The notes under the pieces: generated by a model | What the model was told of the DNA's origin: nothing | Database searches by the model: none | The model's input: only the letters and a program-made list of their open reading frames with translations | Source: Actinomycetales bacterium | GTDB taxonomy: Bacteria; Actinomycetota; Actinomycetes; Actinomycetales; CAWJMD01 | Assembly (NCBI GenBank): GCA_038213835.1 | Contig: JBBQSN010000003.1 | Location: 1 to 42,977 of the forward strand | Length of the DNA stretch: 42,977 nucleotides | Reading direction: 5' to 3' | Position numbers and translations under genes: made by a program | Shown here: positions 1,663 through 13,455 of the stretch, piece by piece | How positions within the stretch are numbered: the first letter of the stretch is position 1 | How the letters are laid out: each line of letters opens with the position of its first letter

Positions 1663-3267
1663 ATGACCTGGACCCAGGACGACGCGCTCGCGCGCGAGCA
1701 CGCACCGGTCAGCCGGGGTGCCCGCACCGCCCGGTGGCGACGCTCCGCCGTCGCCGCGCTGGTGGGGGCCGTCGTGCTCGGAGCGCTCGGTGCAGGCGTC
1801 GCCGCGCTCGGCGAGACCCGGGCCAGCGCCTCCGCCCTCGTGCTCAGCTCGCCCGACCCCGCCGCCGTGGAGAACCCGGCCGACCCCGGTTCCGCGCTGG
1901 GCGACCAGGCGGCCCGCAACGCCACCTACCTGGAGACCGAGCTGGTCTACCTCGACGGCAACGACCTCGCGGGCCAGGTCGCCGCGGCCAGCGGCGGCGA
2001 GCAGCCGGAGTTGGGCGCCGCCCGCGTCGGCAGCTCCAACGTGGTGGAGATCACGGCCACCGCAGCGACGGCCGGCGCGGCGCGCACGCAGGCGCAGTCG
2101 GCCGCAGACCTCTACGTGCAGGGGCGCCGCGACCGGCTCGCCACGCGCATCGCCGAGCAGATCGCGGTGGTCGACCAGCAGATCGAGGCCACCAGCACCC
2201 AGGTCGCCGAGCTCGACGCCGTCGTGGTGCAGACCGCCGCGCAGGAGCAGCAGGCCGACACCCTGCGCCAGCAGTACGCCGACCAGCTCCGCGTCAAGGA
2301 CACCCTCACCCGGGCCGCCGGCGACGTGAACCGGATCGCCACGCAGGTGCAGGGCGCCGTGGTGCGCCCCGCGGGCGCGCTGAGCCCGCTGCTCACCGGC
2401 GCCCTCCTCGGTGCCCTCGTCGGGCTCCTGCTCGGCGCCCTGGTCCCGGTGCTGCGCGACGCCACCTCGTCGCGGGTGCGCGACGTCGACGACCTCGCCG
2501 ACCTCGACGTGCCCGTGCTCACCCCCGCCCTGCCAGGCCCGCGGAAGTCGGGTAGCACCGGCGCCGAGCTGCGCCGCGCGGTCCAGCTGCAGGCCCTGCA
2601 GCTCACCGCCGGTGCCGCGGGCGGCGGCAGCCTCGCTGTCGTGGCCGGATCTGCTGGTGCGGGGACGTCCTTCGTCGCCCAGGCGCACGCTCGGCACGCT
2701 GCCCGGCGCGGTCCGACCCTGCTCGTGCGGGCTGCCGGCCCCGGCGCCGGCGACATCACGCTCGGGGTCGTCCCCGACCACGAGGGCCTGACCGAGCTCG
2801 ACCTGCACAGCCGGCCCGAGCTCACCGGCGACGACCTCGTCCGGGCCGCCCAGCGCACCTCCGAGCCCGACCTGCGGGTGCTGTGCCCCGGGCGCGCCAG
2901 CGCGTACCAGGACGTCGACGCCGACACCCTCGCCGCCGTCGTGGCGACCGCCCGCGAGCTCGGCTGGGCCGTCGTCGTCGACGCCCCGGCTCTGGACGTC
3001 TCGGACCTCGGGGTGCGGCTGTCGCGGGTCTGCGACCAGACCGTGCTCGTCGTCGCCGCGCACCGCACGGCCGTCGACGACGTCGCCGTCACCGTGCAGG
3101 TCCTGCAGGCCGACCGGGGCCGGCTGTCCGGGGTGCTGCTCAACCAGCCCCCGCGCCGCTCCCGCAAGGACGCCTCGGCGCCGAGGGGCGACGAGCGCGA
3201 CGAGACCCAGCCGCACGAGGGCGACGACACCGACCTGCTGCCCCAGCCGTCCCGGTCCCGTGCCTGA
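1663..3267 (+). CDS. Polysaccharide co-polymerase / Wzc-like chain-length regulator with degenerate kinase domain
   Basis: ATG 1663 follows GGAGGAAG. Two TM helices flank a coiled-coil loop (SSNVVEITATA). After RVRDVDDL-DVPVL come a Walker A-like GSAGAGTS, Walker B VVVDAP and LSGVLLN. Confidence 0.8.
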   Translation: MTWTQDDALAREHAPVSRGARTARWRRSAVAALVGAVVLGALGAGVAALGETRASASALVLSSPDPAAVENPADPGSALGDQAARNATYLETELVYLDGNDLAGQVAAASGGEQPELGAARVGSSNVVEITATAATAGAARTQAQSAADLYVQGRRDRLATRIAEQIAVVDQQIEATSTQVAELDAVVVQTAAQEQQADTLRQQYADQLRVKDTLTRAAGDVNRIATQVQGAVVRPAGALSPLLTGALLGALVGLLLGALVPVLRDATSSRVRDVDDLADLDVPVLTPALPGPRKSGSTGAELRRAVQLQALQLTAGAAGGGSLAVVAGSAGAGTSFVAQAHARHAARRGPTLLVRAAGPGAGDITLGVVPDHEGLTELDLHSRPELTGDDLVRAAQRTSEPDLRVLCPGRASAYQDVDADTLAAVVATARELGWAVVVDAPALDVSDLGVRLSRVCDQTVLVVAAHRTAVDDVAVTVQVLQADRGRLSGVLLNQPPRRSRKDASAPRGDERDETQPHEGDDTDLLPQPSRSRA

Positions 3268-4141
3268 CCGAGCACCCGAGCTCTCGCTCGTCGTCAGCAC
3301 CATCGGTCGACCCGAGGACCTGCGGCGGCTGCTGCGCTCGCTCGAGACCTCGACCGCCGCCGACCGGCTCGAGCTGGTGCTGTGCGACCAGGCCGCGGAC
3401 CGGGCCAGCACCCGGGTGCTCGAGGAGAGCGGCACCGCGATCGTGTGGTCGGCCACCACGTCGGGTCGCGGCGCCTCCCGCGGGCGCAACGCCGGCCTGC
3501 GGATCGCGCGCGCCCCGATCGTCGGCTTCCCCGACGACAACTGCTGGTTCCCGGTCACGACGGCCGAGGACGTCCTCGCGGCGTTCGCGGCCTACCCCGG
3601 CCTGGCCGGTCTCAGCGGGCAGCAGCAGACCCTCGACGGCCGCGGGTCGATGCTGCGCTGGGCACCCACCGCGCGCCCGGTCACCCGGACGAACTTCCTG
3701 CACACCTCGATCATGAGCACGATGTTCTTGCGCCGCGCCGTCATGGACGAGGTGGGCTGGTTCGACGAGGGCGTGGGCGTCGGCGCCGAGGGCTGGTACG
3801 GGGCGGGCGAGGAGTCCGACCTGCTGCTGCGGGTGCTGGACGCCGGTGGCCGGGTCGACTACGTGCCCGACGTGGTCGTGCTCCAGGACGAACCGCGGGA
3901 CGACCGCGACCCGGCGTTCGTCGACAAGATGCTGCGCTACGGCTGCGGCAACGGCCACCTGTGGCGCGTGCACCGGCTGTCCAGGGCCCAGCTCGCCTAC
4001 TACAGCGCACGCAAGGTCGCGGGCCTGGCCGTCCGCACCGCCCGAGGCCGTCCCGACCTGGCCAGGGCCGACCTCGCGTTCCTGCGCGGCACCTGGGCCG
4101 GCCTCACCGACCGGCGCCCGCGCGGGCTCCGGGCCCCGTGA
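3260..4141 (+). CDS. Glycosyltransferase family 2
   Basis: LSLVVSTIGR, GASRGRNAGL, FPDDNC, FDEGVGVG and GEESDL motifs. Overlaps the upstream stop. Confidence 0.9.
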   Translation: MPDRAPELSLVVSTIGRPEDLRRLLRSLETSTAADRLELVLCDQAADRASTRVLEESGTAIVWSATTSGRGASRGRNAGLRIARAPIVGFPDDNCWFPVTTAEDVLAAFAAYPGLAGLSGQQQTLDGRGSMLRWAPTARPVTRTNFLHTSIMSTMFLRRAVMDEVGWFDEGVGVGAEGWYGAGEESDLLLRVLDAGGRVDYVPDVVVLQDEPRDDRDPAFVDKMLRYGCGNGHLWRVHRLSRAQLAYYSARKVAGLAVRTARGRPDLARADLAFLRGTWAGLTDRRPRGLRAP

Positions 4142-5490
4142 CCCCCGCCCCGACCCGGTCGCGGCCCAGCCTGTGGTGGCTGTCGCCCGCCGGGGCGCTC
4201 CTGCTCCTGGTGCCGCCGACCCTGCTGCTGACCGCCTACCTCGACGACGCCGACTTCCGGCTCTTCTACCGCACGGGCAAGGCCGTCACGACGGAGAACC
4301 TGCTGCTCGTGGCCCTCGCGGTGCTGCTGCTCGGCTCGATCGCCACCGTCGTGGCGGCGGTGCCGCAGCGCTCCAGCGGTCCTGGACCCGCCACGGTGCT
4401 GCCGCCCGGTGGTGGGGTCACCACGACGTTGCGCCGGGCGTGCGACGTGCTGTTCGCGCTGACCCTGGTCGGCTACGCGGCGTTCGCCGCCGCCGGGGCG
4501 TCCCGGGGGGTCACCCTGGGCCAGGTGGTCCAGCTGCTGGTCAGCCAGGACAACTACGCGGGGAACCTGAAGGACGAGTTCGCCGGCATCGCCGGCGTGA
4601 CCACCCTGACCCAGGTGGGCATCGCGTTCGTCGTGGTGGCCACCTACGCCCTGCTGCGCCAGCGTGACCGTCGGCTCGTGGTCCAGGTCGTCGTGGTCGT
4701 GCTGCTCTCCCTGGTGCGCTCGTTCGTGAACAGCGAGCGGCTGGCACTGGTCGAGATCGCGGTCCCGGCCGTGGCGATCGTCGCGATGGCGGCACGGCAC
4801 GGCCGGCGACCGCTCGGACGCCTGGCCGCGCGGGCGGCACCGGTGGTGCTCGCCCCGATGCTCTTCGTGCTCTTCGCCGCGTTCGAGTACTCGCGCAGCT
4901 GGACCTTCTTCTCGACCCGGACCGACCAGCCGTTCCCGGTGTTCGCCGCACTGCGGCTGGCCGGCTACTACGCCACCTCCTACAACAACGGCTACCTGCA
5001 GCTGGAGCACGGCACCTACCCCGGGCGGCTGCCGCGCGAGTCGGTGCAGGCGATCTGGGAGGCGCCCGGCATCTCCCAGCTCGGTCTCTACGACCGGCTC
5101 TCGGCGCCTCCCCCGGCTGCGGCGACGGACATCCTGCAGCGCTTCGCGAACCCCGAGTTCAACAACATGGGCGGCATCACCGCGCCCATGGTCGACTTCG
5201 GCGTCGTCGGCGGACTGGTCTACCTCGCCCTGGCCGGCGCCCTGCTCGGCCTGCTGTACCGCGGGTTCCGCAACGGTCACGTGGTCGGCGCGCTGCTCTA
5301 CCCGATCGCCCTCACCGGGCTGCTCGACCTGCCCCGCTACCTCTACTGGGCCCAGGGCCGGGTCGTGCCCGCCGTCGTCTGCCTGCTCGTGGTGGCCGCG
5401 GTGCTCTCGCGCAGCCGGCGCCCGGCACGCCGGGTCGTCAGGACGACGGTGCCGGCTCGTGCGGCCGTGGTCGCCGGGGCCGGCACGTGA
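4138..5490 (+). CDS. Oligosaccharide repeat-unit polymerase (Wzy-like polytopic membrane protein)
   Basis: GTGA overlap with the GT2 stop. About 10 hydrophobic helices, an SER motif, and a late extracellular loop ending NPEFNN...DFGVVGG. Confidence 0.75.
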   Translation: MTPAPTRSRPSLWWLSPAGALLLLVPPTLLLTAYLDDADFRLFYRTGKAVTTENLLLVALAVLLLGSIATVVAAVPQRSSGPGPATVLPPGGGVTTTLRRACDVLFALTLVGYAAFAAAGASRGVTLGQVVQLLVSQDNYAGNLKDEFAGIAGVTTLTQVGIAFVVVATYALLRQRDRRLVVQVVVVVLLSLVRSFVNSERLALVEIAVPAVAIVAMAARHGRRPLGRLAARAAPVVLAPMLFVLFAAFEYSRSWTFFSTRTDQPFPVFAALRLAGYYATSYNNGYLQLEHGTYPGRLPRESVQAIWEAPGISQLGLYDRLSAPPPAAATDILQRFANPEFNNMGGITAPMVDFGVVGGLVYLALAGALLGLLYRGFRNGHVVGALLYPIALTGLLDLPRYLYWAQGRVVPAVVCLLVVAAVLSRSRRPARRVVRTTVPARAAVVAGAGT

Positions 5491-6578
5491 GCGGGCCCCG
5501 GCCGCAGTGGCTGCTGATGGCCGGCCACGTCCCGGCCGACGGCACCGGCGGCGGCATCGTCCGGTACACCCTCGAGCTCGCCCGGGGGCTGGTGCGTGGC
5601 GGCGAGGTCGACCTGCACCTGCTCACCGACGCGTCGGCCACCCGGACGCTGCCGGACCTGGTCGGGGGCGGCCGGTCCGTGCCGATGCCGCGCGTGCCCG
5701 GACCCCTGGCCGCGGCCGCCGAGAGGGGCCTGCTCACGCGGGTCCTCGGTGACCGCTACGACGTGGTCCAGGGTGCCAAGCACCTGCTGCCGCGCGGGGT
5801 GCGGGCCCGAGGCGTGCTCACCATCCACGACATGCTCGTGCTCGACCGGCCGCAGGACTTCGGGCGGCTCAAGCGCACCCTGCTGGCCCGCCCCTACCTG
5901 GCCTCCCTGCGGCAGGCGGACACGCTGCTGTGCGTGAGCCAGGCGACCCGAGAGCGACTGTCGCAGTGGGCTCCTCGCGCAGCACAGGATGCCGCTGTGG
6001 TCCCGCTCGCCACGAGCCCGTCGCTGCTCGCCGGCGCGGCGACGCCCGTCCCGCAGCTGGACGGCCGACCGTTCGCCCTGGTCGTCGGGGACGCCTCGGC
6101 GCGCAAGAACCTGCCCGTGGTGCTGGAGGCCTTCACCGACGTGGTGCGCACCCGTCCCGACGCCCGGCTCGCCCAGGTCGGGCCGCCGGCGTGGGGCGTC
6201 AGCAGCTACGGCCCGCACCACGCGGAGCTGCTCGCGAGCGGCCACCTGGTCCAGCTCGAGCGGGTCGAGGACGCCACCCTGCGCTGGTGCTACGAGAACG
6301 CGGCGGTGTCGCTGTCGCCGAGCCTGGTCGAAGGGTTCGGGCTGCCGGCCGCCGAGGCGCTGGACCTCGGCAGCCCGCTCGTCACTTCGCTCGACCCGGC
6401 CCTGGTGGAGGTGAGCGGCGACCGCGCCGAGCACCTGCCCGCCGACGACCCGGCCGCGTGGGCCGCGGCCGTGCTGCGGCACCTCGAGGCGCCCCCGCGC
6501 GAACGCCGGAGGCCAGCGGTCTCACGGACGTGGGACGACGTCGCCGCCGAGACCGTGCAGGCCGTGCTGGGTCGCTGA
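5487..6578 (+). CDS. Glycosyltransferase family 4 (GT-B)
   Basis: GGIVRYT, VLTIHD, RKNL and PSLVEGFGLPAAEA motifs. GTGA-coupled. Confidence 0.92.
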   Translation: MSGPRPQWLLMAGHVPADGTGGGIVRYTLELARGLVRGGEVDLHLLTDASATRTLPDLVGGGRSVPMPRVPGPLAAAAERGLLTRVLGDRYDVVQGAKHLLPRGVRARGVLTIHDMLVLDRPQDFGRLKRTLLARPYLASLRQADTLLCVSQATRERLSQWAPRAAQDAAVVPLATSPSLLAGAATPVPQLDGRPFALVVGDASARKNLPVVLEAFTDVVRTRPDARLAQVGPPAWGVSSYGPHHAELLASGHLVQLERVEDATLRWCYENAAVSLSPSLVEGFGLPAAEALDLGSPLVTSLDPALVEVSGDRAEHLPADDPAAWAAAVLRHLEAPPRERRRPAVSRTWDDVAAETVQAVLGR

Positions 6579-6582
6579 CCGG

Positions 6583-7695
6583 TCAGGAACGGCCGAGGAC
6601 GGACCCGACCACGTCGGTCATCTTCTCGCGGAACGCGTGGCGGGAGAACGTCTCTGCGTGCCGGCGCACGACCCGCGGGTCGTACTCGTCGGCGTCGAAC
6701 CGGGACAGCGCGTCGCTCCAGGCTTCCAGCTCGGCCTCACCGGACGGCGGCACGAGGTGACCGGTGACACCGGGCAGGACCGAGTCCCTGGCCCCGCCCT
6801 CCCCGATGGCGACCACGGGGGCGCCGCAGGCCTGGGCCTCGACCGGGACGATGCCGAAGTCCTCGACTCCCGGCATCAGCAGCGCGCGGCAGCGCCGGTA
6901 CAGGTCGCGCAGGTCGTCGTCGCTCACGCGTCCGACGAACCGGGTGTGCGGGCCCGCCAGGGCCTCGACCTGGGCCCGCGAGCGGCCGTCGCCCGCCACG
7001 ACCAGGGGCACCCCGGCGCGGGCTGCGGCGCGGACCGCGAGGTCCGGACGCTTGTACGGCACCATCCGGCCGGCGAGCAGGAAGAAGCCCTCGCGCTCGG
7101 GGGACGGCGCCGGGGTGTAGTACTCGGTGTCGACCGGCGGGTGCACCACCTGGGCGTCACGGCCCCACCAGCGGTGGATCCGGTCGGCGACCTCGGAGGA
7201 GTTGGCCACCAGGGTGTGCACCCCGGCCGCTGCCACGCGGTCGTGCCGACGGAACGCCGCGGCGAACCCGGCCAGGCCGAGCTGGCCCAGCCGGCCACCG
7301 GCCTCGCCCTGGCGCATCTGCGGGTCCCAGACCCAGCGCGCCGGCGAGTGCACGTACGCCACCACGGGGGCGGAGGTGGCGTGCACGACCTGGGTCGCGA
7401 ACGCGTGGTGGCTGGCGATGACGACGTCGGCTGAGGCGGGCACGCGCAGCCGCCGGACGGCGACGGGCAGCGCGGGGAGCAGGTGCGCGTAGGTCGAGCC
7501 GCGCAGCAGCCGACTGAGCGCCGTGGCGCGGACGCGGTGCTCGAGGTCGGCCGGCATCACCCCCGGACGCGCGACCGGGGCGAGCAGGGGGGCGTCCGGC
7601 CAGGTGCGGGCCAGCTGCTCGACGACCGCCTCGGAGCCCGCGAACTCGGTGAAGCGCTCGTGGACGACGACGGCCCTGGGCGTGCTGCCGCTCAC
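6583..7695 (-). CDS. Glycosyltransferase family 4 (GT-B)
   Basis: Start GTG 7695 overlaps the upstream TGA. Motifs VVHERF..GSEAV, YVHSPARWVW, GRMVPYKRPD and EDFGIVPVEAQACG. Confidence 0.92.
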   Translation of the reverse strand: MSGSTPRAVVVHERFTEFAGSEAVVEQLARTWPDAPLLAPVARPGVMPADLEHRVRATALSRLLRGSTYAHLLPALPVAVRRLRVPASADVVIASHHAFATQVVHATSAPVVAYVHSPARWVWDPQMRQGEAGGRLGQLGLAGFAAAFRRHDRVAAAGVHTLVANSSEVADRIHRWWGRDAQVVHPPVDTEYYTPAPSPEREGFFLLAGRMVPYKRPDLAVRAAARAGVPLVVAGDGRSRAQVEALAGPHTRFVGRVSDDDLRDLYRRCRALLMPGVEDFGIVPVEAQACGAPVVAIGEGGARDSVLPGVTGHLVPPSGEAELEAWSDALSRFDADEYDPRVVRRHAETFSRHAFREKMTDVVGSVLGRS

Positions 7696-9218
7696 GAGCC
7701 CGTCCGGCGGAACACCGCGGCGACCGTCCGCAGGACGATCTTCGCGTCCAGCCAGAGCGACCAGTTCTCGATGTAGTAGTTGTCGATCCGCGCCCGGTCG
7801 GAGATCGAGGTGTCGCCGCGCAGTCCGTAGACGGCGGCCAGGCCGGTCAGGCCGGCTGGCACGCGGTGCCGGCCGGTGTAGCGCGGGATGGTGCTGGAGA
7901 ACTCGTCCACGAAGTGCGGTCGCTCGGGACGCGGACCCACCAGGCTCATGTCGCCGCGCACCACGTTGACCAGCTGCGGGAGCTCGTCCAACGAGGTGGC
8001 CCGGATGACCTTGCCGACCGGACCCATCCGGTCGTCGTTCGAGACGTTCCACAGCGTCGCCGACTCGGACTCGTCGGCCGGGCGCAGGGAGCGGAACTTC
8101 ATCATCGTGAACGACCGGCCGTCCAGGCCCACCCGCTTCTGCCGGAACAGCACGCCCGGGCCGCCCTCCCAGCGCACGGCGGCGGCGACCGCCGCCAGGA
8201 CCGGGAAGATAAACAGCAGGGCGACCGAGGCGATGGCGACGTCCAGGAAGCGCTTGATCCGCCACGACGGGGTGCGGAAGGCGGCCCGGTTCACCCGCAG
8301 CAGGGGCAGGCCCCAGGCCTCGTCCATGTCGGCGTGCACGCTCTGCACCTCGAACAGGCGGGGGACGAAGAAGAACTCGACGTCGAGGCGGTCGCAGGTG
8401 CGCAGCACCTCGACCAGCTCGGACTCGCGCTGCCGGCTGAAGGCCACGACGACGACGTCGACGTCGTTGTCGAGCACGGTGCGGGCCAGCCGGTCCACGC
8501 CGCCCAGCCACGGCACGCTGAGGGCGTCGGGGTCAGCGGGGGCGTCGGTGTCGAGCACGCCGACCGGGTCCAGGCCGAGGTCGGGGTGCTGCTGGAAGCG
8601 CGCGACCAGGTCGCGGCCGACCTCGCCGCCGCCGATCACCAGGGTGCGGTGCACGACCAGGCCACGACGACGCATCACCTTGATCGCCTCGACCGCCACG
8701 GACCGCAGGGCCAGGACGCCCAGGCCGAGCACGGCCGTGCGCAGCACCGGGGCACCGAGCGAGGAGCCGGGCGCGGTCACGAGCACGGCGACGGTGTGCG
8801 CCAGCCCCGCAGCGGCGGCGGCGACCACGGCCACCGGCACCTGGTCCAGACCGGACAGCGTCAGCCGGGCCCGGTAGCCGTGCCGCGCCAGGGACGCGAC
8901 GAGCAGGCCCACGAGCATGATCGCGGCGGGGACGGGGCCGCTCGGCAGCAGCAGGACGGTGAGCACCCAGGCGCCGAGGTCGGCCAGGAGCAGGGCCACG
9001 GGCGTGGTGGTCACACCGGCGAGCCAGCCCCGGCGACGCTCGACCGGCTCGAGGTCGGCCCCGTGCAGCAGGGACGCGTCCGCGGCGTCGCTGCGCACCG
9101 AGACCAGAGGCCGGGCGGCCGTGATCGTGGAGCCGCGGGAGTGGTCGGACGCCGCGCGGTCGCGCAGGTCGATGACGTCGGTCGTGCTGGAGCTGAGGTG
9201 GGACGGGGCGTGCGGCAC
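7692..9218 (-). CDS. Priming polyprenyl-phosphate hexose-1-phosphate transferase (WcaJ/CpsE-like sugar transferase)
   Basis: N-terminal TMs and a Rossmann-like LVIGGGEVG, then KRFLD, FRQKRVG, KFRSL, SLDELPQL..V.RGDMSLVGPRPE and YIENWSLWLD. AAGGA RBS before GTG. Confidence 0.95.
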   Translation of the reverse strand: MPHAPSHLSSSTTDVIDLRDRAASDHSRGSTITAARPLVSVRSDAADASLLHGADLEPVERRRGWLAGVTTTPVALLLADLGAWVLTVLLLPSGPVPAAIMLVGLLVASLARHGYRARLTLSGLDQVPVAVVAAAAAGLAHTVAVLVTAPGSSLGAPVLRTAVLGLGVLALRSVAVEAIKVMRRRGLVVHRTLVIGGGEVGRDLVARFQQHPDLGLDPVGVLDTDAPADPDALSVPWLGGVDRLARTVLDNDVDVVVVAFSRQRESELVEVLRTCDRLDVEFFFVPRLFEVQSVHADMDEAWGLPLLRVNRAAFRTPSWRIKRFLDVAIASVALLFIFPVLAAVAAAVRWEGGPGVLFRQKRVGLDGRSFTMMKFRSLRPADESESATLWNVSNDDRMGPVGKVIRATSLDELPQLVNVVRGDMSLVGPRPERPHFVDEFSSTIPRYTGRHRVPAGLTGLAAVYGLRGDTSISDRARIDNYYIENWSLWLDAKIVLRTVAAVFRRTGS

Positions 9219-9273
9219 GGAGCGTCCTTCCGGGGAGGGTCGTCGTCGGCGGCCGCGTGGTCTGGACGGCTCT

Positions 9274-9301
9274 GACGGTGGTGGAGACTCTCCACACCGT
9301 C
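9274..9301. repeat. Inverted repeat / hairpin in the 5' leader of the priming transferase
   Basis: GACGGTG-G-TGGAG-ACT-CTCCA-CACCGTC: 12-bp stem with one bulge. Confidence 0.65.
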
Positions 9302-9331
9302 GTGGTCGGTCGTTCGATCGGTCATGAGGGC

Positions 9332-9357
9332 TTCGGTGCCCGGTTGGTCAGGGATTG
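9332..9357 (-). promoter_or_regulatory. SigK/ECF19-like promoter upstream of the priming transferase
   Basis: CAATCC-N15-CCGAA on the minus strand, compared with the mycobacterial SigK consensus CCATCC-N15-CCGAA as I recall it. Confidence 0.6.
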
Positions 9358-9373
9358 CCCCGACCCTCGCCCG

Positions 9374-10066
9374 TCACACGACGGCAGCGGCGAACACGAC
9401 GACGTTGTCGCGGTAGTGGCCGGTGGAGGTGTCGAACTCGCCACCGCACGTGATGAGGCGCAGCGCAGGTCCAGGGACCGGTCCGTACACCGCCGCCGAG
9501 GGGAACTGGTCCTTCGGCACCTGCTCGAGGCGCTCGACCCGGAACGCGACCGTGCTGCCGTCGGCGCGATCGACCTCGATCAGGTCGCCGGCGACCAGGG
9601 TGTCGACCTCGGCGAAGACGGCTGGGCCGGAACGCGAGTCGACGTGCCCGAGGATCACGGCAGGACCGCGCCCACCGGGCGCCGGGCCCTGGGTGAACCA
9701 CCCGGCGAGGTCGTAGTCGGCCGGCACCTCGATCGTGCCGTCCGCGGCGACGCCGAGGTCGGTGAGGGCGGACTCGACGCCGATGCTGGGGATCCGCACC
9801 GTCGTCGGTGCCGCGACCGCCGCGTCCTGCCTCGTCTGCGGTGCCTGCGTCAACGGGGCCGCGGTCCCGAACGCCTCGACCGCCGACCCCGGTGCAGGGG
9901 TCGCTGGAGGTGCAGGGGTCGCTGTCGGTGCCGGTGCGGACTCCTGCACGACCGAGGCGGCCGCGGTGTCGGAGGGCTCCGCGCAGCCCGTCAGGAGCAC
10001 GCCGGCGGCGAGCGCCGACAGACCTGCTCTCCCGACGTGGCGGGACGCGCGGGTTCCCCGGGTCAC
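9374..10066 (-). CDS. Class F sortase, predicted lipoprotein
   Basis: GTGA-coupled start, lipobox VLLTGC and Pro/Thr linker. Catalytic motifs VRIPSIGV, AVILGHVDS and LRLITCGGEFD...HYRDN. Confidence 0.93.
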   Translation of the reverse strand: MTRGTRASRHVGRAGLSALAAGVLLTGCAEPSDTAAASVVQESAPAPTATPAPPATPAPGSAVEAFGTAAPLTQAPQTRQDAAVAAPTTVRIPSIGVESALTDLGVAADGTIEVPADYDLAGWFTQGPAPGGRGPAVILGHVDSRSGPAVFAEVDTLVAGDLIEVDRADGSTVAFRVERLEQVPKDQFPSAAVYGPVPGPALRLITCGGEFDTSTGHYRDNVVVFAAAVV

Positions 10067-11010
10067 CGCACCGGCGCCGCGGGGGTGCGACGCGTGCGCT
10101 GCAGGAGGAGCCACCCGGCGACCAGCAGGGCGCCGCCCCCGGCGAGCGCGAGGGACGACCCGGTGGACCCCGTGGCCGCAGCCAGCCCCCCGCCGCCGGT
10201 CTGCGCGCCGCCGACCGGCATCGCGCCGGAGCCGGAGGCGTCGACGACGGGCGCGATGGTCAGGCCGGCGCTGGAGTCCAGGACGAGCAGGGTGTAGACG
10301 GCGCCGCCGGCCAGGTCGAGGTCGGTGCCGGCGACGGTGCCGCCCATCGAGCTGGCCTGCAGGGTCCAGGAGCCGGACGGGACCGTCGCGTACTCGGTGA
10401 CGCGGCCGAAGGCGGCCGCGGTGGCCACGACGGGTCCGTCCACGGCCTGGACGTCGACGGTGGGGGCGGAGGACGCGGCTGGCAGCACCCGGATCCGGGC
10501 GGCACCGCCCACGGGCGGCGTGAGGTCGTCGCGCAGCGTGGTGACGGTCGGCTCCTGCTTGGTGCCGAGGCCCGCGACGGTGTAGGCCGAGCCCTCGATG
10601 GCGTCCAGCGTGCCGGTCAGGATCGGGGCGGCGCCCTGCGCGCTCCCGGCCGGCCACACGCCGACGGCGTAGCGCCCGGGCTCCACCGTCAGGTAGTCAC
10701 CGACGTCGCCGTAGGACGCGGTGGGGGCCAGCACGATCGCGTCACCGAGGTCGGCCGTCCCCGCGCCGGACACCGGCGACAGCGCCAGCGTCATCGTCCC
10801 GAGGCCCGGTACCAGGTGCGCTCCACGCACCCACGCTCCCGCGGAGGCGCCCGAGGATCCCGGGGACGCAGCCGCAGCCGGACCGACCAGCAGCGTCGGG
10901 GTCCCCAGGGCGAGCAGGGCGGCGGTCAGCAGGCCGGCGAGCCGGCGACCGGTCTGACGGGTCTGACGGGTCTGACGGATCACGGTGCGATCGGGATGTG
11001 CGGCAGGCAC
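10063..11010 (-). CDS. DUF4397-domain surface protein with class F sortase-type sorting signal
   Basis: Signal peptide, then two DUF4397-like repeats (WVRGAHLVPG...YGDVGDYL and ARIRVL...APTVDV...FGRVTEY). C-terminus is MPVGGAQTGGGG + TM + RTRR tail. Start uncertain (GTG 11010 after GGAGAG). Confidence 0.85.
   Translation of the reverse strand: MPAAHPDRTVIRQTRQTRQTGRRLAGLLTAALLALGTPTLLVGPAAAASPGSSGASAGAWVRGAHLVPGLGTMTLALSPVSGAGTADLGDAIVLAPTASYGDVGDYLTVEPGRYAVGVWPAGSAQGAAPILTGTLDAIEGSAYTVAGLGTKQEPTVTTLRDDLTPPVGGAARIRVLPAASSAPTVDVQAVDGPVVATAAAFGRVTEYATVPSGSWTLQASSMGGTVAGTDLDLAGGAVYTLLVLDSSAGLTIAPVVDASGSGAMPVGGAQTGGGGLAAATGSTGSSLALAGGGALLVAGWLLLQRTRRTPAAPVR
10951..10977. repeat. Perfect 9-bp tandem repeat x3 (GGTCTGACG)
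   Basis: Read directly; encodes RQT-RQT-RQT in the signal-peptide n-region. Confidence 0.9.
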
Positions 11011-11191
11011 GGCTCTCCAGAGGATCGACAGTCGGGGACGGCTCCGGTCACGTTGCGGGACCGGCGCCGACGAGGCGCTCGGTCGCGACGGTGCGACCTG
11101 GTGCTCGACGCGTCCACCCGACGTCGTCGAGAACCATCGGAACACCTCGACGCCCGGGGTGCCAGCCAGGTGGCGACGCTCGGTAGAGGTT

Positions 11192-11207
11192 GCACCCGAT
11201 CGGACCA
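11192..11207 (-). promoter_or_regulatory. BldM/WhiI-like operator
   Basis: TGGTCCGATCGGGTGC versus the recalled Streptomyces consensus TGnnCCGnnCGGGTGA; one mismatch. Confidence 0.35.
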
Positions 11208-11263
11208 GCACCGTCCCACGGTTCGAGAACGAGGGTCGTCGGCCGTTGGTGTCCACGCTCACG

Positions 11264-11290
11264 ATTCGTGGCGGTCACCGCCACGGATGG
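11264..11290 (-). promoter_or_regulatory. SigK/ECF19-like promoter with palindromic spacer, upstream of the DUF4397-sortase operon
   Basis: CCATCC-N15-ACGAAT. The spacer lies within the inverted repeat CGTGGCGGT-C-ACCGCCACG (11267-11285). Confidence 0.55.
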
Positions 11291-11298
11291 GTCTGGTC

Positions 11299-12240
11299 TC
11301 AGCCGGCGGCCGGTTCCGACTTCTGCGTGGCGGGGTCGCGCAGGTCCGGCTCGAGGTAGATCACCCTGGCGATGGGCACCGCCACGCGGACCCGACGCTC
11401 GGCGGCGTCGATGGCGTCGGCGACCTGGGAGCCGGTCGAGTCGGCGTGCACCGCGATCTTGGCGGCCACGAGCAGCTCCTCCGGACCCAGGTGCAGCGTC
11501 TTCATGTGGATGATGCCCTCGACGCCCTCGCCCGGCAGGGCCGCCTCGATCGCCCGGACGTTCTCGACCGTGGCGCTCTCGCCCAGCAGCAGCGACTTCA
11601 TCTCGATCGCCAGGACGGCGGCGATGACGATGAGCAGCAGGCCGATCGAGGCGGTGCCGGCCGCGTCCCACAGCCCGTTTCCGGTGATCAGGGTCATGCC
11701 CACGCCGACCAGCGCCAGGACCAGGCCCACCAGGGCACCCAGGTCCTCCAGCAGGATGACGGGGAGCTCGGGCTCCTTGGCGGTGCGGACGAAGGCCTTC
11801 CACGACTGGCCCCCGCGGACGTGGTTCGACTCGACGATCGCGGTGCGGAACGAGAACGACTCCATCACGATCGCGGCGACCAGCACCACGACCGGCACCC
11901 ACTGCCAGGCGTCGATCGGGTGCGGGTCCTGGAACTTGTGCCAGGCCTCGTAGAGGGCGAACAGGCCACCGACGCTGAACAGCACGATCGCGACGATGAA
12001 CGCGTAGACGTAGCGCTCGCGGCCGTAGCCGAACGGGTGCTCCGGGGTCGCGGCGCGGCGGGCACGCTTGCCGCCCACGAGCAGCAGCACCTGGTTGCCC
12101 GAGTCGGCCACCGAGTGGATCGCCTCGGCCAGCATCGACGAGGACCCCGTCAACGCCCACGCGATGAATTTGGTCACCGCGATCCCGATATTGGCCACCA
12201 GGGCCGCCACGATCGCCTTGGTCCCACCACTGCTCGCCAT
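11299..12240 (-). CDS. Cation diffusion facilitator (CDF) family transporter
   Basis: AEAIHSVAD, HPFGYGRERY, EDLGALVG and IYLEPD motifs. A -10 TAGGGT lies 7 nt before the ATG (leaderless). Confidence 0.95.
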   Translation of the reverse strand: MASSGGTKAIVAALVANIGIAVTKFIAWALTGSSSMLAEAIHSVADSGNQVLLLVGGKRARRAATPEHPFGYGRERYVYAFIVAIVLFSVGGLFALYEAWHKFQDPHPIDAWQWVPVVVLVAAIVMESFSFRTAIVESNHVRGGQSWKAFVRTAKEPELPVILLEDLGALVGLVLALVGVGMTLITGNGLWDAAGTASIGLLLIVIAAVLAIEMKSLLLGESATVENVRAIEAALPGEGVEGIIHMKTLHLGPEELLVAAKIAVHADSTGSQVADAIDAAERRVRVAVPIARVIYLEPDLRDPATQKSEPAAG

Positions 12241-12270
12241 GACCACGACCCTAGGGGAGCGGGGGCCGGC

Positions 12271-13455
12271 TCAGCGCAACGAGTCGCGCAGCTCCGCCAC
12301 GTGCGGCGAGGTCGCCGGGTCCAGACCGGTGGCCAGGGCGAGGTAGGTGGCGGCGAAGTCGACCCGGGCCACGACCCGCGCGAACCGCTGCATCGGCGTC
12401 TCGGCCGGTCCGCGGACCCCGCTCTCGAGGTCGTCGCCCAGCTCGGTGTGGGCCCGGACCTGGCTCACCCTCACCCCGGAGCGCTCGGCCAGGTCGCGCA
12501 CCGCTCCGAACCCGATGCCGTCCCCGACGTCGAGCAGCAGCAGCCGCAGCCGGGTCGCGGCCGGGCCGTCCAGGAACGGGTCGCTGAACACCTCGTCGGA
12601 GGCGTCGGACGCGAACGGGCCGCCGAAGGTGGCCACCACGTCCCCGGCGTCGTCCGGGAGCATCCCGTGCACCGCGGGGACCCGGGCGGTGCGGGCCAGC
12701 ACCGAGGCGGCGCGGCGACCGGCGACGCCGGCCAGCGGGCTGTCACCGAGGATGACGGGCACCGAGCCGTCGACCTCGGTCGCGAGCGCCTTGGCCGGGT
12801 TCACGAACGACTCCGACGACGGACGGCAGGCCTCCGCCTCGGCGTCGAGGGCGTCGGCGACCGCCGCGAGGTCGTGCTCTCCCCCGGACGCGTCGGCGGG
12901 CAGCAGCCCGAGCCGGTCGCACGCGAGCAGCGGGCCGGTGAGCAGGGACCACAGTGCCGTGCGGGAGGTCGGGGTGGTGGCCGCGGACCGGTCGACCGGC
13001 AGCGGCACGTGCGCCCCCCGGAACCGCTGGCTGACGTGCTCCAGCGGCGAACCGGTCGCCCCGACGGTGAGCAGCTGCGACCCTCGGCGACCCGCCTCCG
13101 TGGCGACCGCGACGGCGCCCTCGGCACGGCCGGACAGCGAGATCGCGACCACGACGTCCATCGACCCCACCCAGGACGGCAGCCGCGAGCCGGACAGCGC
13201 GATGACCGGGACCGGCCCGGCCCCCCCGACCACGGCGGCGAGGGCGTCGCCGACCACCGCCGCTCCCCCGCGGGCGGCGACGACGACGGCCCGAGGACGT
13301 CCGCCGTCGGCCCACGACGAGGGCAGCGCCTCCTGGGTGAGCGCGAGCGCCTGGCGCACCTGCGCCCCCGCACCGGCGAGCGAGCGCAGCACCGACCGCG
13401 GGTCGGCCGCCTCGAGGGCGAAGGGGTCGTCCAGCAGCTGCTCGTCCAGGGCCAT
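12271..13455 (-). CDS. SIS-domain protein, bifunctional phosphoglucose/phosphomannose isomerase-like (TobH/Rv3256c family)
   Basis: RSLAGAGAQVR, RPRAVVV, SLSG, SRTALW, NPAKALA and DFAATYLAL motifs; conserved position downstream of manB. Confidence 0.85.
   Translation of the reverse strand: MALDEQLLDDPFALEAADPRSVLRSLAGAGAQVRQALALTQEALPSSWADGGRPRAVVVAARGGAAVVGDALAAVVGGAGPVPVIALSGSRLPSWVGSMDVVVAISLSGRAEGAVAVATEAGRRGSQLLTVGATGSPLEHVSQRFRGAHVPLPVDRSAATTPTSRTALWSLLTGPLLACDRLGLLPADASGGEHDLAAVADALDAEAEACRPSSESFVNPAKALATEVDGSVPVILGDSPLAGVAGRRAASVLARTARVPAVHGMLPDDAGDVVATFGGPFASDASDEVFSDPFLDGPAATRLRLLLLDVGDGIGFGAVRDLAERSGVRVSQVRAHTELGDDLESGVRGPAETPMQRFARVVARVDFAATYLALATGLDPATSPHVAELRDSLR

Follow-up and report, generated by a model that had tools for sequence, protein, structure and literature searches.

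Predicted SigK-type promoters precede both a DUF4397-sortase F operon and a polysaccharide priming operon in a soil actinobacterium

Two adjacent gene units, one encoding a DUF4397 surface protein with a class F sortase and the other a polysaccharide priming transferase with a glycosyltransferase of family 4 (GT4), were found downstream of closely similar bipartite motifs in a 42,977-nucleotide (nt) stretch of DNA from a soil actinobacterium of the order Actinomycetales (GenBank assembly GCA_038213835.1, contig JBBQSN010000003.1, positions 1 to 42,977), which as a whole is referred to as the window. Based on the distribution of the motif in this genome and its relatives, both sites are very probably promoters of SigK, an extracytoplasmic function (ECF) sigma factor of group ECF19, and we consider it probable that the two units are co-regulated through them. 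The assembly (G000) comprises 3.16 Mb in 208 contigs and is 84% complete, and the window has a G+C content of about 75%. The two sites and the genes they precede are as follows.

11265-11290, minus strand: P1, predicted SigK-type promoter, CCATCC (-35), 15-nt spacer, ACGAA (-10)
10063-10983, minus strand: gene for the DUF4397 surface protein, 306 amino acids (PF14344, E 1e-27)
9374-10066, minus strand: gene for the class F sortase, 230 amino acids (NF033748, 191.2 bits, cut-off 166)
9332-9357, minus strand: P2, predicted SigK-type promoter, CAATCC (-35), 15-nt spacer, CCGAA (-10)
7692-9218, minus strand: gene for the priming polyprenyl glycosylphosphotransferase (TIGR03025, 378.5 bits, cut-off 295.55)
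6583-7695, minus strand: GT4 glycosyltransferase gene, start overlapping the transferase stop by 4 nt

An earlier note on this DNA had postulated two co-oriented gene pairs, DUF4397-sortase F and priming transferase-GT4, together with bipartite motifs of 15-nt spacing. The profile matches confirmed the gene content, with all four genes on the minus strand, and both motifs could be located on the same strand, P1 (11290 to 11265) reading CCATCC-GTGGCGGTGACCGCC-ACGAA and P2 (9357 to 9332) reading CAATCC-CTGACCAACCGGGCA-CCGAA. The common pattern CMATCC-N15-MCGAA, hereafter the strict motif, was derived post hoc from these two sites; it matches the window twice against 0.02 expected matches, and two matches were reached in 0/100 shuffles. 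Since the pattern was drawn from the sites themselves, the real test lies in the rest of the genome. Both boxes of P1 and P2 are identical in G003, a relative from another genus of the same family, including the CAATCC variant of P2, and the spacers have diverged; the G003 sites read CCATCC...CCGAA upstream of the DUF4397 gene and CAATCC...CCGAA upstream of the transferase gene.

Genome-wide, the strict motif was found nine times. Seven of these matches are intergenic according to a codon-score gene caller made for this analysis, which assigns 9.6% of the genome to noncoding DNA (binomial P = 2e-6), and each of the seven faces a gene in the same orientation, with 9-282 nt to its start. When the half-sites were kept and the spacer was set to 8-14 or 16-23 nt, 38 matches were obtained, of which only three are intergenic, and the reversed pattern gave no match in the genome. 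A motif frequency at chance level, named by the earlier note among the outcomes that would refute it, was therefore not observed. Apart from the window sites, the motif precedes the sigK-rskA genes as well as the genes for a fasciclin lipoprotein and a membrane-bound molybdopterin oxidoreductase, and its further targets are an alpha/beta hydrolase gene, an amine-oxidase/DUF1365 operon and a gene for a secreted VanY-like peptidase. The eighth site is located within the last 36 nt of the hydrolase gene, just upstream of the amine-oxidase gene, and the ninth falls within the part of a second ECF sigma gene that codes for region 4, where it has probably arisen by chance. A genome scan allowing one mismatch was too noisy to enlarge the regulon, since the 22 co-oriented sites it returned at spacer 15 compare with 7-16 at control spacers, and a scan of the genome for the variant CMATCC-N14..18-CGTA gave two intergenic matches, neither of them informative. 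A different element, (C/G)GATCC-N16-CGAAC, was noticed at intergenic, gene-pointing positions (C19:6261, C60:317, C66:13418, C104:5125, C114:5174 and C154:405), which may be targets of yet another ECF sigma factor.

The proposal further depended on the presence of an ECF19 sigma factor. Indeed, the genome encodes SigK (NF007228, 266.4 bits, cut-off 226), its gene is followed by that of RskA (RskA_C, PF10099, 67 bits), and the motif is located 139 nt upstream of sigK itself. ECF sigma factors typically autoregulate. In mycobacteria, the SigK consensus is CCATCC-N15-CCGAA, of which no printed version was found in the literature searched, and the regulon is made up of MPT70/83, which are fasciclin proteins, and of amine-oxidase/DUF1365 genes next to sigK. 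Within the source's family, five relatives (G001-G005) were analyzed, of which G001 and G002 (91% and 68% complete) share the genus of the source; their motif counts are 7, 5, 6, 2 and 7, compared to 0, 0, 1, 1 and 2 for the reversed pattern. The motif precedes the sigK-rskA and oxidoreductase orthologues in G001-G004 (4/4) and also the hydrolase and amine-oxidase orthologues in G001-G003; in G005, none of the seven matches adjoins an orthologue of the query proteins. In G209 and G289 it again precedes both sigK and the oxidoreductase gene, and in G209 additionally the fasciclin gene. SigK orthologues occur in 66/151 genomes of the class, a tally which includes three unpublished genomes. For the analysis of upstream regions 3/29 loci were dropped as unpublished, and among the remaining 26 loci, all from other families, the strict motif is located up to 400 nt upstream of sigK in 11, and a looser form, ATCC-N15..17-CGAA, upstream of sigK in 18. 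From these results we conclude that, judged by sequence statistics and comparison of genomes, the motif is a genuine, conserved and spacing-specific regulatory signal tied to sigK, and we infer that SigK is the sigma factor which binds the window sites.

The oxidoreductase promoter also indicates where transcripts may begin. Its start codon is located exactly 8 nt past CGAA in 7/7 genomes from four families (here contig C26 21380-21416), too close for a ribosome-binding site to fit in between, so that the oxidoreductase mRNA is probably leaderless and the likely transcription start is the ninth base past CGAA. Applied to the window, this would place the starts near 11256 for P1 and near 9323 for P2.

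The first of the two units has the features of a dedicated sorting system. By inspection and regular expression, the DUF4397 protein comprises a signal peptide, the C-terminal sequence PVGGAQTGGGG, a hydrophobic stretch and an R-rich tail. The GTG start codon of the sortase gene overlaps the DUF4397 stop codon (GTGA), and the sortase contains a lipobox (LLTGC) and the His, Cys and Arg catalytic motifs ILGHVD, LITCGG and YRDNVVV, which were read by eye. DUF4397 homologues were detected in 40/401 sampled genomes of the order, belonging to 16/118 genera, and are patchy in relatives (3/40 with the window query). In all, 29 distinct DUF4397 loci were compared, and the 27 loci beyond the window and G003 are called further loci in the following. 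A sortase gene directly follows the DUF4397 gene in 24/27 further loci, and all 26 aligned homologues (26/26) end in the sorting signal P-x-GGA-x-TG-x-GG, followed by a hydrophobic stretch and a basic tail. This GGAxTG signal differs from LAXTG and from LPXTG, the substrate motif of the only characterised class F member. In the source genome, which contains five sortase genes, only the DUF4397 protein carries a GGAxTG-type signal, and three other proteins carry LAxTG signals. We conclude that the DUF4397 protein and sortase F are, as predicted from gene order and signal conservation, a dedicated substrate-enzyme pair with a GGAxTG signal. The structural model of the DUF4397 protein, generated from an alignment, shows two beta-sandwich domains with a mean predicted local distance difference test score of 78.9 and values above 90 through the core. 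Among solved structures, it is most similar to the two-domain extracellular region of the PepT1/2 transporters (target-normalised template modelling score 0.72); further down the list, at rank 29, is the alginate acetylation protein AlgF with its C-terminal domain. The fold is a generic one that gives little indication of function.

We then considered how the pair is linked to glycan genes in other genomes. In G003, the order DUF4397-sortase-transferase-GT4 is kept with a DUF4397 protein of 64% identity, and a true transferase orthologue (74% identity) was found in G003 only; the four other family members harbor paralogues of 34-51% identity. The synteny with a WcaJ-like gene that the earlier note had expected in relatives is therefore found in G003, but a priming-transferase homologue occurs in 0/25 further extended loci (2.5 kb upstream and 7 kb downstream of the pair), so that by this test the proposed synteny fails outside one family. 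What recurs elsewhere, in a divergent arrangement in two other families, are the twin motifs. The initial view that relatives lack a glycan linkage altogether, which was based on the transferase query only and on 2.5 kb of upstream sequence, was overturned by wider glycosyltransferase queries: a glycosyltransferase or priming-transferase homologue is present in 14/29 DUF4397 loci, compared to a hit rate of 2.45% among 10.3-kb windows drawn at random from this genome. The arrangements comprise the tandem transferase-GT4 order of family f1, a divergent GT2-GT4 operon in families f8, f12 and f20, GT2/GT4 genes downstream of the sortase gene in one genus of f13, and one further case in f6. Of four genomes with the motif upstream of DUF4397 that were searched for the pattern, G289 and G325 have another copy of it about 350-450 nt from the DUF4397 motif; this copy is on the other strand and precedes the divergent GT2-GT4 operon. 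The GT2 of this operon is most like polyprenyl-phosphate sugar synthases, with scores below their cut-offs, and the operon leads into a large cluster which contains additional GT4 genes together with a GH5-like gene and the gene for a protein of about 1090 amino acids, whose G226 homologue gave a weak match to a PMT_2-type transferase. A small conserved Cys-rich frame (CxCGH...HEH...GSDCGxCG) was noticed between the GT2 and DUF4397 promoters of L130, L135 and L136 (G226, G325, G289).

The strict motif is located upstream of DUF4397 in 6/29 loci (window, G003, G209, G226, G325, G289), that is in 4/27 further loci from three families, to which a one-mismatch form adds three more, and the reverse-complement control upstream of DUF4397 gave no strict match in the 27 further loci. 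It is also located upstream of the adjacent glycosyltransferase operon in 6/29 loci (window, G003, G522, G196, G325, G289), with a one-mismatch form before the GT2-GT4 operon of G486, and upstream of both units in 4/29 loci from three families (window, G003, G325, G289). Other families have rebuilt the twin motifs around a different order of genes, which argues for selection on joint expression of these particular units and suggests that protein and glycan may act together.

Several points weigh against a joint control of the two units by SigK and are considered here, each with the explanation it favors. The first group concerns P1, for which two neighboring features have to be introduced.

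11299-12246, minus strand: cation-diffusion-facilitator (cation-efflux) gene, separated from the DUF4397 gene by a 315-nt gap
10984-11264, minus strand: 5' leader of the DUF4397 operon, predicted transcription start near 11256

The earlier note had described each operon as preceded by a motif. Both sites are present, but P1 does not adjoin its operon: it is located 282 nt from the DUF4397 start codon and begins 8 nt past the stop codon of the cation-efflux gene. Its spacer region (11268-11284, minus strand) forms a perfect hairpin, GTGGCGG-TGA-CCGCCAC, with a 7-bp stem and a 3-nt loop, which starts about 14 nt past that stop codon and is not kept in G003. Given this position and spacer, P1 could also serve as a terminator, and the hairpin, which lacks a T-tract, might double as the terminator of the cation-efflux gene. 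That P1 is chiefly this hairpin, with an accidental likeness to a promoter, and that P2 alone is a promoter, would account for the long leader as well; it is nevertheless highly improbable, since G003 has the same boxes and spacing without an upstream efflux gene and with a non-palindromic spacer, since other families also carry the motif upstream of DUF4397, and since a scan of 9000-11600 for T-tract terminators found none. A sigma-70 promoter scan of the same interval was likewise negative.

The second group of points concerns the identity of the sigma factor. The genome contains a second set of fasciclin, ECF sigma and RskA_C genes on contig C27 (16963-18923; L003 3963-5923), and a GCATCC-N15-CCGGA element was seen by eye upstream of its fasciclin gene, so that cross-recognition of the window sites by the C27 RskA-type sigma factor is conceivable. 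In addition, family f11 and related loci from metagenome-assembled genomes (L011, L013-L015, L105) have a distinct CCATCC-N15-GACGTAnnGTCAC element before DUF4397 instead of the strict motif. That such a factor rather than SigK reads the motif is, in our view, improbable, because the exact motif is located upstream of a SigK-family gene in G000-G004, G209, G289 and the 11/26 distant loci, and because the sole motif match of the paralogue is inside its own region-4 sequence, where it is kept in G001-G003 because it is coding. The ECF sigma gene adjoining the G003 locus was rejected as a candidate regulator, as its product has merely 25% identity to SigK, and a SigK or RskA homologue adjoining the pair was found in none of 25 order-level loci save for one weak match (26% identity). 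As to the GACGTAnnGTCAC element itself, it was observed before DUF4397 in L011, L013/L087, L014/L090, L015/L094 and L105, with CCATCC 15 nt upstream in two of them, and a divergent gene for a product of 74-81 amino acids and an OmpA-family gene are located beside loci of this type.

The third group concerns the breadth of the association. The strict motif is absent from 23/29 DUF4397 loci, a glycosyltransferase was not detected in 15/29, and the convergent half of the window's polysaccharide cluster, described below, has no SigK-type motif upstream. With the queries used, neither the DUF4397 gene nor a true transferase orthologue was found in the incomplete genomes of G001 and G002. Moreover, the DUF4397 loci are kin, so that their counts overstate independence and reduce to about four distinct arrangements, and the intergenic assignments depend on a crude gene caller. 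Some of these observations fit an explanation according to which the two units are co-regulated and functionally uncoupled, i.e. independent parts of a general envelope response which are adjacent because accessory envelope genes tend to cluster. Linkage of the priming transferase to the pair is confined to one family, the glycan genes nearby represent two or more unrelated types of pathway (a Wzy-type pathway with a priming transferase, and GT2/GT4 genes with a PMT_2-like large membrane protein), and the regulon holds unrelated envelope genes, namely those for the fasciclin protein, the oxidoreductase and the VanY-like peptidase. The frequency of glycosyltransferases next to DUF4397, far above the background, and the rebuilding of twin motifs in other families speak against this explanation, which we rate as a serious possibility that falls somewhat short of an even chance. 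In this explanation, too, both units belong to the SigK regulon.

The second unit and the remaining genes of the region are consistent with a role in polysaccharide synthesis. Two further features belong to this part of the window.

9219-9331, minus strand: leader of the transferase operon, predicted transcription start near 9323
1663-6578, plus strand: convergent rest of the polysaccharide cluster, encoding a chain-length/tyrosine-kinase-like protein, a GT2, a Wzy-like polymerase and a GT4

The priming transferase contains the domains Bac_transf and CoA_binding_3 and scores 358.7 bits with the WcaJ model, which is below its cut-off of 410.75. The 4-nt overlap of its stop codon with the GT4 start indicates that both genes form one operon. 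A gap of 155 nt separates the sortase gene from the transferase gene, whose ribosome-binding site (GGAAGGA) and GTG start are kept in G003. An ATG located 7 nt past the CGAA of P2 opens a frame of 104 codons (9011-9325, minus strand) that overlaps the transferase start out of frame; it has no G003 counterpart and is unlikely to be a gene. The convergent genes are syntenic in G003. Their assignments are partly weak, as the Wzy-like polymerase model reached 30.6 bits compared to a cut-off of 40 and the chain-length-regulator and tyrosine-kinase models matched with E values around 2e-4, and no Wzx flippase was seen; the contig ends at base 1. Taken together, the region resembles a Wzy-type surface polysaccharide cluster that has the sortase-substrate pair at one end.

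The DUF4397 leader was considered separately. The G+C content at third codon positions is 0.67-0.75 in the leader compared to 0.93 in the DUF4397 gene, and the frame is not kept in G003, so that an N-terminal extension of the protein to near the promoter was rejected. The leader (10984-11264; L010 7805-7982) shares blocks with G003, e.g. CCGATCGGGTG, ACCTGGCT and CGACGnCGTCGGGTGGACGCGTCG, and these common blocks are read in different frames. An Rfam scan of 6000-12500 at E values up to 1 gave no match, and the fold z-scores of the leader are -1.17 in the window and -2.80 in G003. It is possible that the leader holds a second regulatory element.

The following mechanism is proposed for the system. 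RskA, a membrane anti-sigma factor, would restrain SigK until an envelope or redox signal frees it or activates it through RskA, after which SigK would transcribe a small regulon in addition to the sigK operon. In the window, it would switch on the two adjacent units, i.e. the DUF4397-sortase F operon and the priming transferase with its GT4. The translationally coupled, lipoprotein-type sortase presumably cleaves the GGAxTG signal and links the DUF4397 protein to peptidoglycan. Induction would thereby add a covalently wall-bound two-domain protein and at the same time open the first committed step of a Wzy-type polysaccharide pathway, whose remaining genes, being devoid of the motif, would be outside this control. 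A direct physical link between protein and glycan appears unlikely to us. The same applies to the more far-reaching idea of a single SigK-inducible envelope module, in which the peptidoglycan-fixed DUF4397 protein would be the anchor, scaffold or acceptor of an inducible glycan, either being glycosylated itself or holding the polymer; we put it forward as a speculative proposal.

The arrangement resembles known systems in part. As in the mycobacterial SigK-RskA regulon, a SigK-family sigma factor is combined with RskA, the motif is located upstream of sigK, and the regulon is small (PMC7509140, PMC4105308). The same articles present the mycobacterial regulon as known from the mpt70/83 and sigK loci and its signal and function as open. 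Shared with the mycobacterial regulon are also the fasciclin lipoprotein and the amine-oxidase/DUF1365 cluster, whereas the sortase F-DUF4397 pair and the polysaccharide priming enzyme are additions of the system described here. In a title-level search of the literature, neither sortase F nor DUF4397 nor a polysaccharide priming enzyme was found to be described as a target of SigK, and none of the DUF4397 titles listed concerned sortases. While SigK-RskA and the conserved site it acts on were known before, the glycan link and the twin-promoter architecture are added.

Dedicated sortase-substrate gene pairs are known from class B sortases with IsdC and from class C sortases with pilins. The present locus is similar in that the sortase gene adjoins that of a single predicted substrate, which combines a signal peptide with a C-terminal motif, hydrophobic stretch and basic tail. 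The window sortase passes the NF033748 cut-off and in this respect resembles the class F sortase characterised from Propionibacterium acnes, from which the system differs in the GGAxTG motif in place of LPXTG/LAXTG (PMC8225981, PMC13251363). Differences to the Propionibacterium acnes enzyme are also the lipobox instead of a plain membrane anchor and the predicted dependence on an ECF sigma factor.

In Gram-negative bacteria, exosortase/PEP-CTERM systems are linked to exopolysaccharide loci. Here, too, the genes for a sorting enzyme, its cargo and polysaccharide synthesis are located side by side, and several weak matches to the NCBIfam models of PEP-CTERM/XrtA-associated transferases were found in the window. 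The likeness is an analogy only, since the enzyme here has a sortase fold, the cargo signal is GGAxTG and not PEP-CTERM, the link is made through shared promoters, and the glycan pathway varies between lineages.

Class F sortases are common in actinomycetes, and one report describes their physiological roles as unknown and a quadruple knockout in Actinoplanes as having no phenotype (PMC13251363). Against this background, the locus offers candidates for a natural class F substrate, whose sorting motif is distinct, for an inducing regulator (SigK-RskA) and for a functional partner, an inducible surface glycan. For SigK, the regulon would extend past the mycobacterial mpt70/83 and sigK loci, which suggests a role in remodelling of the cell surface. 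Should the proposal of one inducible envelope module prove true, the system would represent an actinobacterial counterpart of the link between exosortase/PEP-CTERM sorting and polysaccharides and would provide the first proposed physiological role for actinomycete class F sortases.

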